64,000 nucleotides of DNA from an uncultured Bacilli bacterium. GTDB lineage: Bacteria > Bacillota_I > Bacilli_A > RF39 > UBA660. The position numbers and the translations under genes are program-made. Position 1 is the stretch's first letter. The number at the start of each line of letters is the position of its first letter. The notes under the pieces were generated by a model. The model was not told where the DNA came from. It was given only the letters and a program-made list of their open reading frames with translations, and did no database searches. Positions 28,103 through 50,068 of the stretch are shown here, one piece after another. Location: the NCBI GenBank assembly GCA_944358525.1, contig CALVRI010000001.1:10652-74651 (forward strand). Reading direction: 5' to 3'.

Positions 28103-28253
28103 CTCTCTTTCTTTTGCCGTGAATTAAAAAAGCTCTGGATATTATGCCAGAGCTAAAAGACTTTATTAAATGTCTCGGTAGGAAATTAAGCTTCTAGGCA
28201 CCTACTGTCTACGGCATAATTAAACTTACGAATTCATTATATCATAGCTTTTA
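28103..28253 (-). promoter_or_regulatory. rplJL leader (L10 leader-like RNA) with attenuator hairpin AGCTCTGG-atattatg-CCAGAGCT + U6 at 28126-28154
   Basis: 150-nt untranslated region between rplA and rplJ containing GCCGUAGACAGUAGGUGCC-like motif and a perfect 8-bp terminator/antiterminator stem followed by UUUUUU just before the rplJ RBS. Confidence 0.5.
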
Positions 28254-40349: not shown

Positions 40350-41090
40350 TTAATTTAAAATTTTATCTAGTAATTCTGTGAGTACTAAAGTGGTTTTATC
40401 TTTTTGGCTTCCTTTTTCCAAAGTAATTATTTTACCATCCATTATTATTTTTGACATATTTTTAACATATGAGCTACTTGGTAAAATATAGTCGATGTTT
40501 CTATCTAAAAAACTGTTTATTTCATATAAATTCAAATGATTTCTACTCAAAGCTTCATTTAATATGACATAATAGTTTTTTAAATTCATATCTTTATATA
40601 TTGAAATCATTGTTTTCATGTTTTTTAAATCCATTAAATCACTTGTAATAACATATATAATACTATTACTATTATCGAAAGTAATTAGATTTATGTCATC
40701 GATGATATGATTGGTATCTATTAAAATTACATCATATTGGTATTTTAGTTTTTTTAATATTAAATCAATATAATAGGTACTTATTTTTCCGACACTTCTC
40801 GGATCTTTAGGAGCGGCTAAGACATCAATATAATCATTGTATTTTGTAATGTATTCATCTATTTCTTTTAAACCATGATTCATGTAATCGTTAACTAAGG
40901 TATATATATCTTTTTTTGGTTTTAGGTTTAATAAGGCAGATATGACACCGGAGTGCAAATCCATATCAACTAAAATTGTTTTTAATTTTTTATTTGATAA
41001 TATGCCGGCTAAAGATAAGGTAGTAGTGCTTTTTCCAGTTCCTCCTTTAGCTGATGTGACAGTAATTACTTTAGCTTGTTTTATGGCCAT
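40350..41090 (-). CDS. CpaE/TadZ-like ParA/MinD-family ATPase (no N-terminal receiver-like domain)
   Basis: Deviant Walker A SAKGGTGKSTTT and ParA fold; position between TadE-like genes and cpaF. Confidence 0.7.
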   Translation of the reverse strand: MAIKQAKVITVTSAKGGTGKSTTTLSLAGILSNKKLKTILVDMDLHSGVISALLNLKPKKDIYTLVNDYMNHGLKEIDEYITKYNDYIDVLAAPKDPRSVGKISTYYIDLILKKLKYQYDVILIDTNHIIDDINLITFDNSNSIIYVITSDLMDLKNMKTMISIYKDMNLKNYYVILNEALSRNHLNLYEINSFLDRNIDYILPSSSYVKNMSKIIMDGKIITLEKGSQKDKTTLVLTELLDKILN

Positions 41091-41101
41091 AACTTATCCC
41101 T

Positions 41102-41467
41102 CTATTCTTTTTGAATTATTATTTTTTCATTTTCTATATAACCATTATAAGTCAAATCAATGTCAAACTTATGGTTAAAATTGAATAAAGCATCATATTT
41201 TTCTTTGACGGTTACTTTAATTACTTTATTTTTTATTTCAACTGTTATGTCACCTTTTATATTTTCTTTTAATAAATCAGTTAAAATAATTTCTAAATTT
41301 TCATTATCTAAATGATTTAAGCCATATTCAATAGTATCTTTTATTTCAGTCTCATATTTGTTTAGGGTTATACTTAAATTTCCAATTTCCCATATCAAAG
41401 CAAATAATATAAATAATATAGGTAAAATTAATATGAATATTACTAATGTTTGACCTTTATTCCCCAT
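41102..41467 (-). CDS. TadE-like pseudopilin (121 aa)
   Basis: Short leader MGNKG|QTLVIFILILPILF then hydrophobic helix (TadE/TadG type; Ile rather than Glu at +5). Confidence 0.55.
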   Translation of the reverse strand: MGNKGQTLVIFILILPILFILFALIWEIGNLSITLNKYETEIKDTIEYGLNHLDNENLEIILTDLLKENIKGDITVEIKNKVIKVTVKEKYDALFNFNHKFDIDLTYNGYIENEKIIIQKE

Positions 41468-41813
41468 TTAATGCCTCATAATTTTCATATATTGTTTTAG
41501 TTGTTTTTATTTCGTAATTTTTACCTAGTATATTTGTTAAACCAGGGGCAGATATTTCAACATTCTTTTTTAAAGTTAAGGTTATCATACCGTTTTTTAT
41601 TTCATCTTCTAAAGTTAAATCTTCATTAGCAAGGTATACCCCTAACTTCTTGGTATCATTACTTTTATACAATTCAGTTACTGTTTCTAAATCTTTGTTT
41701 AAATCATATTTCTTTAAAAAAATATTACCAATATCAATCATTGCCATAGCAATTAATAGTAAAACTGGTAATATCAATATGAATTCCACTAAAGCTTGCC
41801 CCTTCTTATTCAT
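41457..41813 (-). CDS. TadE-like pseudopilin (start probably MNKKG|QALVEF; ORF-finder start 41834)
   Basis: GQALVEFILILPVLLL matches TadE N-terminal motif with Glu at +5; AGGAAAG RBS precedes the second ATG; a TATAAT box lies between the two ATGs. Confidence 0.6.
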   Translation of the reverse strand: MNKKGQALVEFILILPVLLLIAMAMIDIGNIFLKKYDLNKDLETVTELYKSNDTKKLGVYLANEDLTLEDEIKNGMITLTLKKNVEISAPGLTNILGKNYEIKTTKTIYENYEALNGE

Positions 41814-41839
41814 ATTATCACGCTTTCCTATCATAATAA

Positions 41840-41869
41840 ATTATATCAAAAAAAAAGAGTAATAACAAT
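41840..41869 (-). promoter_or_regulatory. candidate internal promoter for the TadE-like genes (-35 TTGTTA / 18 nt / -10 TATAAT)
   Basis: Minus-strand aTTGTTAttactctttttttttgaTATAATttattatg... immediately upstream of TadE-like CDS. Confidence 0.35.
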
Positions 41870-41978
41870 ATGGTTAAGGGAAAATAGTGTAAAATAAGGA
41901 GAAGACATTTTTAAATAAATTGAAGGTTTTCAATTTTTAATGGTGCGGTAAATCAATTTTTTTGCTATGGAAAATGCG

Positions 41979-42004
41979 GTCCACCAAGCTTTGGCTTGGT
42001 GGAC
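41979..42004 (-). terminator. perfect 11-bp hairpin GTCCACCAAGC-tttg-GCTTGGTGGAC, candidate attenuator/terminator between pilus subunit gene and TadE-like genes
   Basis: GC-rich perfect palindrome in an AT-rich spacer; on the minus strand followed by CGCAUUUUCC. Confidence 0.4.
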
Positions 42005-42120
42005 TTATTCTCTATATTTTAAGTATTATTAAATATCTTTTGTGATGTTTCTTTAGAAAAACATATCTATTATATGCACTAAACCCTACACCACCACCTT
42101 TACTATTATTTTTTGAAATG

Positions 42121-42153
42121 TATAATTTGGTATATTTCACACACCAAATTATA
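42121..42153. repeat. perfect 11-bp inverted repeat TATAATTTGGT-(11 nt)-ACCAAATTATA
   Basis: Seen directly in the intergenic region downstream of the 427-aa gene. Confidence 0.5.
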
Positions 42154-42194
42154 CACCATTATATATATTTCATTTTCCCTCGAAATTTGGGGCG

Positions 42195-42224
42195 GTCCCC
42201 GTAAGACTTCGCCTTACAGGGGAC
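42195..42224 (-). other. GC-rich RNA hairpin immediately 3' of the 427-aa subunit gene (GUCCCC-u-GUAAG / CUUAC-GGGGAC, 11 bp with one bulge)
   Basis: Local GC content far above the window average; sits 12 nt after the stop codon and has no U-tract. Confidence 0.45.
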
Positions 42225-42235
42225 ACTTCGTAGCT

Positions 42236-43510
42236 TTATCCCAATTTGAATGCATTTCCTTGACTTCCATCTCCTCCAGTGATTTTAACATTGGAGTTTA
42301 GATATAAGACTGGGCGGACGGCAGCGGAGCTAGTGACGTAAGAGCCATTTCCATTGCCATAAACAGAACCGACCAGACGGGCTGCATAGTTGGAATAACT
42401 GGCATAAGGAGATTGTAACCACTCGGTTATTCCACTATATAAATAATCACTGTTTTTACAACTACTTTTATAATCATAAAGGGCGGTTGATAAACAACTA
42501 CTTCCTGCTGCATATCCATAATCACTTGGATACATTAAACCTATATGTTGGGTTGTACTTGATGGATTTCCACTATATACTTGTGAGCTATCTCTTTCTG
42601 AATTATAGTAACCACTTGCAGTTAAGGTGTTAATATTACTAGAAGTTGATCCTCCTAAATAATAGGTTTCCTCTGATATCATTCCTTTCGATGTAGCTTC
42701 AATACTGTTATAGTATTCTCCATTTAAATATGTTTTTAATGAAGCATTATTCCAATTGTTTGAATTTGATGAATTCCATTTCATATTTCCTAGACTCTCA
42801 TTTCTGATTATTTTTATTTTACCATCTATAACACCTATTATTCTCCATAATTCATTATTAAATGTTACATAGTTATTTGGTGTTGCACCATAGTATCTGA
42901 TATCACCGTGCTCATCAGTGTATAGTTCGTTGGTGTTTGTGGATACCAATTCTGTTATTTTGTCAGTTGCTAATTCACCACTTGGTTCTGGTGGAGTAAC
43001 TCCACCACTTGGTTTTTGTACATAATTCAAGGTAAGTGAAAGTTCACCCGTTAAATTTTCTGGTTGTGAAGTTACATTTGCATAAGATATTTTAACAGTC
43101 ATAGTAGTTTTATCACCAGCTAATAAAGGATCTCCTTCATTAACACCTGATGTTTCAAATATTATTGCAGGATTATTTGAATCTGATTTAGTAATTGAGT
43201 CTAATACTGCATCAATTGTTCCTTTGTTTTCAATAGTAATTTCATATGTCATAGCATCACCTGGAGCATACAAATTAGCTTCCATAGTAGCTGTGGTTGC
43301 TGTGTAAGAAGGCGCTACAGCATTCTCACCAGTTCCAGTTGGTGTTCCTGGAGTAATACCCGTTATTTGAATATCCCAGTTTGAAGTTACAGTAGATGAT
43401 CCTGCAATTTCCAATTGTGTTGAAAAAGCGGCATAACCTATAGTCATACATATTAATATAGCAAGTAAACTACCGATTATTATTGTTCTTTTTTTTCTAT
43501 TTTTATACAT
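42236..43510 (-). CDS. large pilus-associated/surface protein (424-427 aa) with TasA/SipW-cognate-like N-terminal signal and C-terminal domain shared with the 48815..50068 prepilin-like protein
   Basis: N-terminus KKRTIIIGSLLAILICMTIGYAAFSTQLEIAGS resembles the ...G(T)xAxFS(D/T) SipW-cognate signal class; first gene of the Tad-like locus; C-terminal ~230 aa align with the 417-aa protein (NNYxxF..E.WRII ... RPVLYLNSN..TG.G). Confidence 0.5.
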   Translation of the reverse strand: MYKNRKKRTIIIGSLLAILICMTIGYAAFSTQLEIAGSSTVTSNWDIQITGITPGTPTGTGENAVAPSYTATTATMEANLYAPGDAMTYEITIENKGTIDAVLDSITKSDSNNPAIIFETSGVNEGDPLLAGDKTTMTVKISYANVTSQPENLTGELSLTLNYVQKPSGGVTPPEPSGELATDKITELVSTNTNELYTDEHGDIRYYGATPNNYVTFNNELWRIIGVIDGKIKIIRNESLGNMKWNSSNSNNWNNASLKTYLNGEYYNSIEATSKGMISEETYYLGGSTSSNINTLTASGYYNSERDSSQVYSGNPSSTTQHIGLMYPSDYGYAAGSSCLSTALYDYKSSCKNSDYLYSGITEWLQSPYASYSNYAARLVGSVYGNGNGSYVTSSAAVRPVLYLNSNVKITGGDGSQGNAFKLG

Positions 43511-43609
43511 ATATCTCACCCTATTTTAATTATAAGGATTTTTTATTTTATAAACAACGTATTTGTAAGTAAGTGTCAAAATATTTTGTCAATAAATGTA
43601 AAAAAATGC

Positions 43610-48814: not shown

Positions 48815-50068
48815 TTACCCTATTTTATATGGATCAGTTTGAGTTCCAGAACCTGTCAAAGTTATATTAGAATTTAGATAGACTACTGGGACAACATTGC
48901 GGCTTGAACCTAAGACATCTGTATCATAATAAAATCCGCCGCTATGGATGAATATTGGACTAAATGATGCATTAGCATGGGATATTGTCCACCAATAAGT
49001 ACCTAAACTTGACATCCAATTTGTATTTATACATTTGTTATAATTAGTACTTATTAAAGATGCTGTTCCACATTCTACATTATTAGTATTAGCTCTTATG
49101 TATTCACTTGGTGCAATTAAGCCTACTTTACCATTCCAATTTGTACTATTTTCTGAGGTTATTTGTGATGCGAGATCATTATTATTATAATTAATCGTAC
49201 CGATTGGCCAGTTATGAGAAGTTATTTGAGATTGTTCAGATAATGTCTGTAAATAAGTGCTATTTAAATATGTATTTAAAGTTGCCGGGGCATTCCAAGT
49301 GCTGACACCTTCAGTATCCCAAGGCATATTGGCTATATTTTGAGATCTCATTATTTTTAACGTACCATCAGAATTTATTGAGATTATCCTCCAAGTTTCT
49401 CCACTAAAGTTTATATAATTATTTGGGTTTGCTCCTTTATAAGTGTATTTTCCTGTTTCAAAGCTATCTGCATACAACCCATCGTTTTCGGTAACAATTG
49501 GAATATTAACCCCACCTACTGTTATGGTGTTTTCTTCCGGTGTTTCTTCAATATATAATTGATTATCCATGGCGATAGTTGCATATGTGTCATTGTTAAA
49601 TTCAGCAAATAATCTTCCTTTATTTTGAACTACATTGGTTTCTACTTTAGAAATAAAATCACGGAATTTTTGATTTATATTATTATCTTCTTTAGTAGAA
49701 ATATATTTTTTTATGATGCTGATATCAGAATAGGTATAAATAATAGTTTTGGCGTCCATTTTATTAATGAGGTTGTCGCAAAAGTTGTCTATTATTCCGG
49801 CATCCATGTTACAAGAACCATCTTTATATACAACAACATATGGTAATGCTTGTGTTAACTTTGTAGATAAATCATAATTGTTTGTTTGTAGATAATTTGC
49901 AACTGATGATAAATCATAAATTGATTCGACATTGTTATAATTATAACTATTTTTATAATTAGTTGTAAGATTACTAAATTGAATATAAAGCAATATTAAT
50001 ACTGTTAAAACAAAAGTTGACACAACTAATGACTCCGCTAATAAAAAACCCCTATTATCTTTTTTCAT
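48815..50068 (-). CDS. large prepilin-like protein (417 aa) with C-terminal putative adhesin domain
   Basis: MKKDNRG|FLLAESLVVSTFVL prepilin signal (Glu +5); C-terminal ~220 aa homologous to the C-terminus of the Tad-locus 427-aa protein. Confidence 0.65.
   Translation of the reverse strand: MKKDNRGFLLAESLVVSTFVLTVLILLYIQFSNLTTNYKNSYNYNNVESIYDLSSVANYLQTNNYDLSTKLTQALPYVVVYKDGSCNMDAGIIDNFCDNLINKMDAKTIIYTYSDISIIKKYISTKEDNNINQKFRDFISKVETNVVQNKGRLFAEFNNDTYATIAMDNQLYIEETPEENTITVGGVNIPIVTENDGLYADSFETGKYTYKGANPNNYINFSGETWRIISINSDGTLKIMRSQNIANMPWDTEGVSTWNAPATLNTYLNSTYLQTLSEQSQITSHNWPIGTINYNNNDLASQITSENSTNWNGKVGLIAPSEYIRANTNNVECGTASLISTNYNKCINTNWMSSLGTYWWTISHANASFSPIFIHSGGFYYDTDVLGSSRNVVPVVYLNSNITLTGSGTQTDPYKIG

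Follow-up and report, generated by a model that had tools for sequence, protein, structure and literature searches.

In the diversity-generating retroelement (DGR) of Bordetella phage BPP-1, a GC-rich hairpin or cruciform lies downstream of the variable region (VR) of mtd; both the structure of its stem and the sequence of its loop are required, and no such hairpin follows the template repeat (TR) (Guo et al. 2011, PMC3240598). DGRs of "architecture D" carry the accessory genes MSL (MutS-like) and Avd (Wu et al. 2018, PMC5758913), and remote targets have been described in Treponema denticola (PMC6602519). In gut phages, the DUF6273 domain, which has a C-type-lectin (C-lectin) fold, is a DGR target domain (PMC10743442, PMC11792537). 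Here, we analyze a 64-kb stretch of DNA from an uncultured Bacilli bacterium (contig CALVRI010000001.1; the whole stretch is referred to as the window), in which a spacer containing three prominent hairpins, H1 to H3, separates a gene for a 427-aa DUF6273 protein from a Tad-type pilus operon. The minus strand is the sense strand for all genes neighboring the spacer.

The explanation that we favor, with a probability of roughly 0.7, is that the spacer consists of two unrelated pieces, the truncated 5' end of a DGR cassette and the native upstream region of the tad operon. The 427-aa gene would then be a remote (orphan) DGR target, H1 most likely a target-site hairpin, H3 a probable insulator, and the promoter beyond H3 the start of the operon. 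The cassette piece (42025-42235), comprising H1, a small adjoining hairpin (H1b), H2, a ribosome-binding site, and about 25 codons of an open reading frame (ORF) that we call ORF-X, would have arrived together with the diversified C-lectin domain, probably by recombination or gene conversion from a cassette-linked paralogue. In the native piece (41811-42006), H3 would insulate the operon from transcription coming from the target gene, or terminate that transcription, and a strong extended -10 promoter would start the TadE-to-TadC operon about 20 nt ahead of the start codon. This explanation draws on homology to intact cassettes that ends at a defined breakpoint, on the signature of the VR, on the positional specificity and covariation of H1, and on the conservation of H3 and the promoter. 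The coordinates of all features are collected in Table 1.

The 427-aa protein has an N-terminal hydrophobic signal or anchor segment with a GYAAF motif, an Ig-like middle region, and a C-terminal DUF6273 (C-type-lectin-like) domain, which is its sole significant Pfam domain. The family is large (more than 6,000 homologues), with several paralogues per genome of about 1.5 Mb in uncultured gut Bacilli. In the protein alignment, the C-terminal domain is conserved save for one block (...EWLQSPYASYSNYAARLVGSVYGNGNGSYVTSSA, residues ~363 to 403), which precedes an invariant AVRPVLYL. Over 17.35 kb, contig L001 and the window are 99.2% identical, and they differ at 27 positions in 42300-42399 and at 15 in 42400-42499, compared to one in 42200-42299 and none in the spacer. 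The density of differences peaks within the VR and stops exactly at a boundary resembling an initiation of mutagenic homing (IMH) site. The proportion of A is 0.23 in the VR, compared to 0.39 elsewhere in the gene.

We compared each of 85 related loci with itself and found TR/VR pairs in which nearly all mismatches fall at adenines of one copy (33 of 39 in L018, 20 of 21 in L043, and 16 of 16 in L066, with others behaving likewise). Downstream of the adenine-rich copy in these loci come a MutS-like ORF, bAvd, and a reverse transcriptase (RT). In relatives, the same block pairs with TRs by A-specific mismatches; VRs end in ...GTCCGCCCAG and continue with TCTT, and TRs end in ...GTCCGCCCAG and continue with CTCC, CTCT, or CTTC. 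When tested for the properties of a DGR target, the 427-aa gene was found to have its VR at the 3' end of a gene encoding a C-type-lectin-type domain, with a sharp 3' limit of variability at a GC-rich IMH common to the TR. Given the hypervariable block, the depletion of A, the TR/VR pairs in the family, the boundary, and the literature on DUF6273, the 3' end of the gene (~42310-42432) is, as judged from its sequence, a DGR VR.

Within the 64-kb window, a scan that tolerated mismatches at A sites returned self-matches only and no TR, and no RT, Avd, or MSL gene was found. Because the TR, the MutS-like gene, Avd, and RT are missing here, the 427-aa gene would be a remote target, one that would need to be serviced by a cassette elsewhere in the genome. 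The TR of that cassette would end in ...GTCCGCCCAGC, and we infer that the VR is probably still diversified in trans.

Loci L018, L086, and L090 resemble architecture D in carrying target, TR, MSL, Avd, and RT, and the gene in the window resembles the known remote targets in lacking an adjacent cassette. Two differences stand out. The related cassettes, unlike architecture D, have an extra conserved gene, ORF-X, between the hairpin and the TR, and the window, unlike the known remote targets, keeps a stub of a cassette beside the target, in a host belonging to the uncultured small-genome gut Bacilli (relatives include CAG:822). The 427-aa gene shares with the DUF6273 targets of gut phages (tentaclins and a Faecalibacterium prophage; PMC10743442, PMC11792537) the same domain and a VR in its C-terminal part. 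Unlike them, it is chromosomal and multi-copy, encodes an N-terminal signal or anchor and an Ig-like region, and stands between mutS and the tad operon with no phage genes nearby.

An intact cassette whose start agrees almost base for base with 42025-42235 is found in L090, a 3.3-kb contig from the same metagenome study as L001. The order in this cassette type is target, H1, H2, ORF-X, TR, MSL, Avd, RT; L090 shares H1, H1b, H2, and the start of ORF-X with the window, with few substitutions, and then continues to a full 114-aa ORF-X, TR, MSL, Avd, and RT. In L018 (Firmicutes bacterium CAG:822), the order is target, H1, ORF-X, TR, MSL, bAvd, RT; the H1 that follows the target stop codon is identical to that of the window, CCGCCCCAAATTTC included, and the first ~25 codons of ORF-X match 42025-42101 of the window. 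The MSL gene is marked by a MutS_I Pfam match with E=0.083 in L018 and a weak one in L111. Intact cassettes L086-L090, with closely related TRs, occur in the same sample series.

A tblastn search with ORF-X matches the stub in the window at 90% over 41 aa (E=4e-19), and full-length ORF-X has 97 to 114 aa in L086, L090, and L018. The open frame in the window (42012-42140, minus strand; 42 aa from the longest-ORF start, GTG 42140) stops 12 nt past the breakpoint, and we read it as a stump of ORF-X. The origin of the distal half of the spacer can be judged by comparison with L004, a syntenic relative with 84 to 87% nucleotide identity in which the mutS-target-tad arrangement is kept. The L004 target has another VR class, and the half of the spacer that holds H1 and H2 in the window is replaced by unrelated sequence. 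Because H1 and H2 are present in DGR cassettes and absent from the L004 spacer, they travel with the DGR module and not with the tad operon. The distal spacer of L004 (L004:11291-11515) is purine- and GC-rich and contains several mini-hairpins with GAA, AAA, or GAAA loops (CACGC-AAA-GCGUG, UUCAC-GAA-GUGAA); our covariance model of H1 gives no match there, and this sequence may play the part of H1 in a DGR of another type.

ORF-X itself was located at L018:10909-11214, L015:4399-4686, L019:9106-9438, L027:4748-5041, L086:4702-4995, and L090:318-662. Its place is between H1 and the TR, except in L038 and L039, where it comes after the RT. The substitutions that separate the loci are synonymous in type. 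The family has no match in Pfam, PHROGs, or NCBIfam, and its BLASTP comparison with the neighboring MutS-like protein is not significant. At the N-terminus, no nearby in-frame ATG, GTG, or TTG is present in L015, L018, or L019, and L027 has one 17 codons in; L086 has GTG where others have GTA or GTT. A strong Shine-Dalgarno-like site (AAAGGTGGTG) is present despite the missing starts. ORF-X may be a new DGR accessory gene with unusual initiation. In L027, whose cassette shares its chromosomal site, upstream of rpsF-ssb, with that of L018, an insertion sequence (L027:3328-4509, encoding a 393-aa transposase on the opposite strand) separates the target stop codon from H1, and the cassette is otherwise intact.

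We next consider the hairpins, which were read on the minus strand between the stop codon of the 427-aa gene (42236) and the TadE-like gene. Fold energies and shuffling confirm that all three are real and that the structure far exceeds chance. The 401-nt spacer folds with z-scores of -6.1 (minus strand) and -6.6 (plus strand), values matched by none of 100 shuffles. At least one perfect inverted repeat of at least 11 bp occurred in 12 of 2,000 dinucleotide shuffles, and the real spacer has two. Seven loci across the window have such repeats, and the five outside the spacer are A/T-rich hairpins flanked by runs of A and T. H3 alone folds at -20.4 kcal/mol (z = -7.5), and H1 folded together with H1b reaches -22.5 kcal/mol. 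H1 is followed by CCGCCCCAAAUUUCGAGGG and has no U-tract, as is true of H2, and a consensus scan called no intrinsic terminator on the minus strand. In general repeat searches, none of the three hairpins recurs elsewhere in the window.

A first-pass annotation of this DNA had placed the three hairpins correctly, including the absence of a U-tract after H1 and the 11-bp perfect stem of H3. It had given H2 as an 11-bp perfect inverted repeat, which is perfect and in place, although its stem extends to 13 bp. The same annotation had called the GC-rich hairpin compositionally foreign. A separate origin, in the DGR cassette, agrees with this, but the GC-rich patch is wider than H1 and reaches into the last ~200 nt of the 427-aa gene, with 200-nt windows of up to 46% GC.

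We built a covariance model (R1) from 13 distinct H1 homologues. The model matches the window at 42192-42227 with 48 bits and has 19 matches in 1.25 Mb (both strands), five more in L086-L090, and one in L114. All 25 matches in these related loci are on the sense strand and within ~40 nt of the end of a target gene. In the alignment, 84% of cells are paired, compared to 70% in shuffles (0 of 500), and compensatory changes are seen in 8 of the 13 pairs. The outer stem changes fully between loci (GUCCCC/GGGGAC, GUGCC/GGCAC, GGCUCG/CGAGCC, ACGGCC/GGCCGU), while the apical core, AAGG-C-G(N)AA-G-UCUU (AAGG-C-GAA-G-UCUU in the window) with a 1-nt bulge in the 5' arm, is kept, even where the cassette RTs are ~54% identical (L114). 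One G.U pair is invariant in all 14 distinct sequences, which points to a strand-specific role. H1b is longer in relatives (CCUUGA/UCAAGG in L020, CCCUU/AAGGG in L038, CCACUU/AAGUGG in L043), with covariation judged by eye only, and is missing in L114.

H1 directly precedes a cassette in L018, L019, L020, L027, L038, L039, L040, L041, L043, and L086-L090, and L114 has the same arrangement. Orphan copies, with no cassette in the locus, are found in the window, L001, L005, L009, L031, L067, and L080; L015 carries a further truncated stub. The TRs of L018, L086, and L114 are not followed by a hairpin. With a covarying stem, a conserved apex, and a place after VRs and not after TRs, H1 shows the pattern of structure and placement expected of a functional target-site hairpin. 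Between H1 and the TR of L114 (L114:5199-5330) lie a canonical intrinsic terminator (AAAGTCATAAA...TTTATGACTTTTTT), 17 nt after H1, and then a perfect TTGACA-17-TATAAT promoter. Because the terminator and promoter come after H1, the hairpin there belongs to the target side and is neither a terminator nor part of the TR transcript; a role as the 5' element of the TR transcript is ruled out for this locus. This segment of L114 thereby offers a clean natural case in which the transcripts of target and TR are kept apart.

Pairs of tandem targets precede a single cassette in L086, L087, L088 (3205, 4510), and L006 (1442, 2747). The hairpin-less VR of a 763-aa target is identical in five contigs from five samples (L086, L087, L088, L006, and L005), compared to three alleles for the adjacent H1-flanked VR, a contrast that hints at a role for H1 in homing. 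The static VR of these tandem targets matches the L090-type TR better than it matches the TR of the L086 cassette itself.

How far does H1 resemble the BPP-1 hairpin? Both are GC-rich stem-loops on the sense strand past the VR and IMH, with a small loop of the G-N-A-A type, a covarying stem, and a conserved apex, and both are absent after the TR. H1 differs in lying 86 to 90 nt from the VR rather than 4 to 34 (in the window it starts 86 nt past the VR end, 10 to 15 nt after the stop codon), and in its stem, which includes a bulge and a G.U and has 13 pairs where 7 to 10 are usual for the class. Its family has a GAA triloop or GNRA loops (GCAA, GUAA, GGAA) rather than the GRNA loops of the BPP-1 class and is often accompanied by a second hairpin. 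The greater distance from the VR is due to the ~75 nt of conserved coding sequence that follow the VR in the DUF6273 target family. By this analogy, H1 appears to work like the target-site hairpin class without being a strict member of it. It most likely acts as a DGR target-site hairpin, a stable sense-strand stem-loop downstream of the VR that would promote integration of the cDNA, and it may also slow or stop transcription. A 17-mer of H1 has 12 matches in viral contigs. Most of these lie in unrelated sequence of high GC content, and several seem to fall within reading frames; they look like chance matches and were rejected.

Several observations weigh against a target-site role. H1 falls outside the strict definition used by Guo et al. 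2011 and myDGR (a 7- to 10-bp GC-rich stem, a 4-nt GRNA loop, and 4 to 34 bp from the VR). Paralogues that have ordinary AT-rich terminators in place of H1 also differ in their VRs between metagenome-assembled genomes (L012 compared to L016), so H1 cannot be an absolute requirement. A U-tract (CUUUUUUUU) follows the homologue of H1 in L039, L041, and L067, where it looks like a plain terminator. The alternative that survives best, doubtful in our view but still to be taken seriously, is that H1 is only a terminator or 3'-end stabilizer of the target gene, carried with the gene and without any part in retrohoming. Its place just after the stop codon, these U-tracts, and the variable H1-less paralogues would all fit, as would the GNRA-type loops, the invariant G.U, and the bulge, which are RNA-like features. 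However, no U-tract follows H1 in the window, in L018, in L086, or in the L090 type, and L114 has its separate canonical terminator past H1. The native terminators of the window are A/T-rich with flanking runs of A and T. Moreover, an apex conserved across cassettes with such divergent RTs is unusual for a terminator, and the hairpin occurs only after DGR targets.

Other points bear on the VR rather than on H1. Among the cassettes retrieved by searches for RT homologues, none has a TR that differs from the VR of the window at A sites only; the best TR, that of L018, has 21 A-site and 9 non-A mismatches, plus gaps. The VRs of the window and of L001 (9170-9297) differ by 3 nt in length, which could not be produced from a single TR; it seems that the population contains several TR variants or partial conversions. 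Against the L018 TR, the two VRs show compensating 6-nt and 3-nt indels. Differences between the window and L001 are also scattered in the C-lectin domain outside the VR. Given these differences and the hybrid contig L005, recombination between paralogues or assembly chimerism also shapes the 427-aa gene. In L005 (L005:1-1920 compared to L086:1370-3276), the tad-adjacent gene is 98% identical to the cassette-side 763-aa Flg_new-repeat target of L086, with an identical VR; either the tad locus has truly exchanged one target gene for another, or the contig was assembled chimerically via the common 3' tail.

It could accordingly be argued that the hypervariability of the VR is an assembly artifact or the product of gene conversion between paralogues, and that the 427-aa gene is a fossil target whose diversification has ended. 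The sequence flanking the VR on either side is conserved among paralogues, L005, with its L086-like gene joined to the tad spacer, has the look of a recombinant or chimera, and the differences outside the VR and the lack of a matching TR point the same way. We nevertheless consider this unlikely, given that the differences peak in the VR and stop exactly at the IMH-like boundary, and that intact cassettes with closely related TRs occur in the same sample series.

H2 is confined to the lineage of the window, L001, L005, and L090, where it belongs to an insertion of ~60 nt that the L018 and L086 cassettes lack. It is invariant only among contigs that are otherwise near-identical, and its loop contains GTG 42140. 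H2 has no match in viral contigs. Five matches in metagenome contigs share only the arms of the palindrome, in unrelated and mostly higher-GC contexts with no homology in the flanks, and we therefore rejected a miniature inverted-repeat or other mobile element. H2 appears to be a lineage-specific palindrome; we would guess at an operator for a cassette regulator, and in the window it is most simply vestigial. On the plus strand, one arm of H2 forms the -10 of a promoter-like site (42099-42126; TTTACT-16-TATAAT, 10/12), antisense and aimed back over H1 into the VR.

Expression of the stub, either as the 42-aa ORF or as a transcript derived from H2, would be compatible with the intact Shine-Dalgarno-like site and open frame, the TATAAT boxes in both arms of H2, and the promoter-like site on the plus strand. 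We think it very improbable that the stub is functional, since the frame covers just the initial quarter to third of a 97- to 114-aa protein and ends just past the breakpoint, the sense strand has no good -35, and the invariance of H2 among near-identical contigs alone is no sign of selection. A Flp-type pilin in the spacer was also considered and rejected; none of the small ORFs resembles Flp, and among them the ORF-X stub alone is conserved.

The proximal half of the spacer belongs with the pilus genes. From mutS, the gene order is mutS, the DUF6273 gene, the spacer, a TadE-like gene, a 121-aa gene, a ParA/TadZ-like ATPase, a TadA/CpaF ATPase, and two T2SSF-domain (TadB/TadC-type) genes, the downstream genes being identified as a Tad-type pilus operon by Pfam, with a TadE hit on the first. 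The TadE-like gene is called from ATG 41813 in L001 and L005, with AGGAAAG preceding it, and this is probably the true start. The spacer would then measure ~422 nt rather than the 401 nt of the first-pass annotation, which had also put it inside the pilus operon; its upstream neighbors are instead mutS and the DGR target, and the promoter is the operon's own. Homology with L004 starts exactly at the 5' edge of H3. Against a background identity of 84 to 87%, the promoter is identical at 29 of 29 positions, the 5' untranslated region (5'UTR) at 27 of 27, H3 at 22 of 26, and the H3 tail at 13 of 14, so that the proximal half is far better conserved than coding DNA. All four differences in H3 are in the loop, and the stem is identical. 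Conservation in L004 is thus seen for H3, the promoter, and the 5'UTR and not for H1 and H2, which the L004 spacer lacks.

The promoter predicted by the first-pass annotation stands, with hexamers, a spacer within the 16 to 18 nt of sigma-70 promoters, a TG, and the conservation just described. Probably, TTGTTA-17-TGaTATAAT is the tad operon promoter and would fire from a start near 41833. H3 is the only stable structure conserved with the operon between the target gene and this promoter, and is probably a terminator or insulator against transcription from the target gene. Together, the two resemble an ordinary region of terminator followed by sigma-70 promoter, with a stable GC stem, a short U-run, -35 and -10 elements, and a short 5'UTR. 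Two points weigh against a terminator. Unlike in an ordinary Rho-independent terminator, the U-run is short (four U's) and displaced, starting 4 nt after the stem (H1 and H2 have none at all), and the consensus scan calls H3 terminator-like on the plus strand only. The H3 loop is CAAA in the window (41990-41993) and L001, TTTG in the near-identical L005 (2163-2166), and TTCG in L004 (11529-11532), with the stem unchanged; the CAAA/TTTG difference looks like a loop inversion across a perfect palindrome.

Least plausible of all is the original suggestion that the three hairpins are an attenuator within the operon, a riboswitch, or a small RNA setting pilus stoichiometry: the predicted structure is strong and a promoter follows, and the idea of a regulatory region holds loosely for H3 and the promoter, but the gene upstream has nothing to do with the pilus, the L004 tad spacer lacks H1 and H2, which are homologous to DGR cassettes that do not adjoin tad genes, the z-score is equally strong on both strands, as expected of palindromes and not of a strand-specific RNA, and Rfam offers no match even at E up to 10. 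The Rfam scan, which had been recommended as a riboswitch check, gave nothing relevant in 40500-43500 or in the window, the best matches in 40500-43500 being far below gathering and biologically irrelevant.

Table 1. Features of the spacer and its flanks (window coordinates)
Feature	Coordinates	Strand	Description
Putative DGR target gene	42236-43519	-	427-aa secreted protein; Pfam DUF6273 E=8e-9, residues 237-408
Predicted VR	42310-42432	-	hypervariable, A-poor, GC-rich; ends at IMH-like GC-rich boundary GCCGTCCGCCCAG (42322-42310)
H1	42195-42224	-	GUCCCC-(U bulge)-GUAAGGC-GAA-GUCUUAC-GGGGAC; 13 pairs including one G.U
H1b	42177-42192	-	small second hairpin, CCC...GGG
H2	42119-42155	-	13-bp perfect AT-rich inverted repeat, 11-nt loop
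ORF-X stub	42025-42101	-	Shine-Dalgarno-like AAAGGTGGTG and ~25 codons, 5' end of ORF-X
Junction	42005-42024	-	cassette homology ends at 42024/42025; L004 tad-upstream homology starts at ~42006 (alignments)
H3	41979-42004	-	GC-rich 11-bp perfect stem, 4-nt loop, then CGCAUUUUCC
Predicted tad promoter	41840-41868	-	TTGTTA (41868-41863), 17 nt, TATAAT (41845-41840), TG 41848-41847; 10/12 consensus
5'UTR and start	41811-41839	-	AGGAAAG 41829-41823, likely ATG 41813-41811

Elsewhere in the window, the product of the gene at 48815-50068 (minus strand) has 417 aa; its N-terminus is of the prepilin type (MKKDNRGFLLAESLVV...), and its C-terminal domain is DUF6273-like and 32% identical to that of the DGR target (E=2e-25). 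The gene adjoins an N-methyl pilin gene and a T2SSE ATPase and is not depleted of A; it apparently encodes a non-diversified, lectin-tipped pilin. The sole curated RNA family in the window, according to a scan at gathering thresholds, is an L10 leader (Rfam RF00557, 65.9 bits) at 28117-28232 (minus strand), upstream of apparent L10 and L7/L12 genes. ARAGORN found no tRNA or tmRNA.

What had been taken for a regulatory RNA in a pilus operon is replaced by a testable reading, in which a lectin-type, hypervariable surface protein of an uncultured gut Bacilli lineage serves as a remote DGR target and retains the front end of its source cassette, and the likely tad promoter is pinned down. What is new is the combination: an orphan DGR target, the stub of a cassette beside it, and a candidate target hairpin that is well conserved and unusually placed. 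The H1 family is a clean natural data set on a poorly understood step of DGR function, namely how the cDNA finds its target; it combines covariation in the stem with conservation at the apex, includes orphan copies, and has one locus in which terminator and promoter stand apart from the hairpin. It also suggests that the distance and loop rules of annotation tools are too narrow. More tentatively, and as a possibility we would not yet bet on, hairpins of the H1 type could be sequence-specifically recognized "licence tags" for DGR retrohoming, read through the core, the invariant G.U, and the bulge in the 5' arm, acting ~90 bp away past the stop codon, and copied with the 3' ends of targets to new chromosomal sites so that orphan genes, in this case one for a secreted lectin-like protein beside the tad operon, become diversifiable in trans. 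If this were true, DGR finders, which search only 4 to 34 bp after the VR, would systematically miss both the tags and the remote targets.

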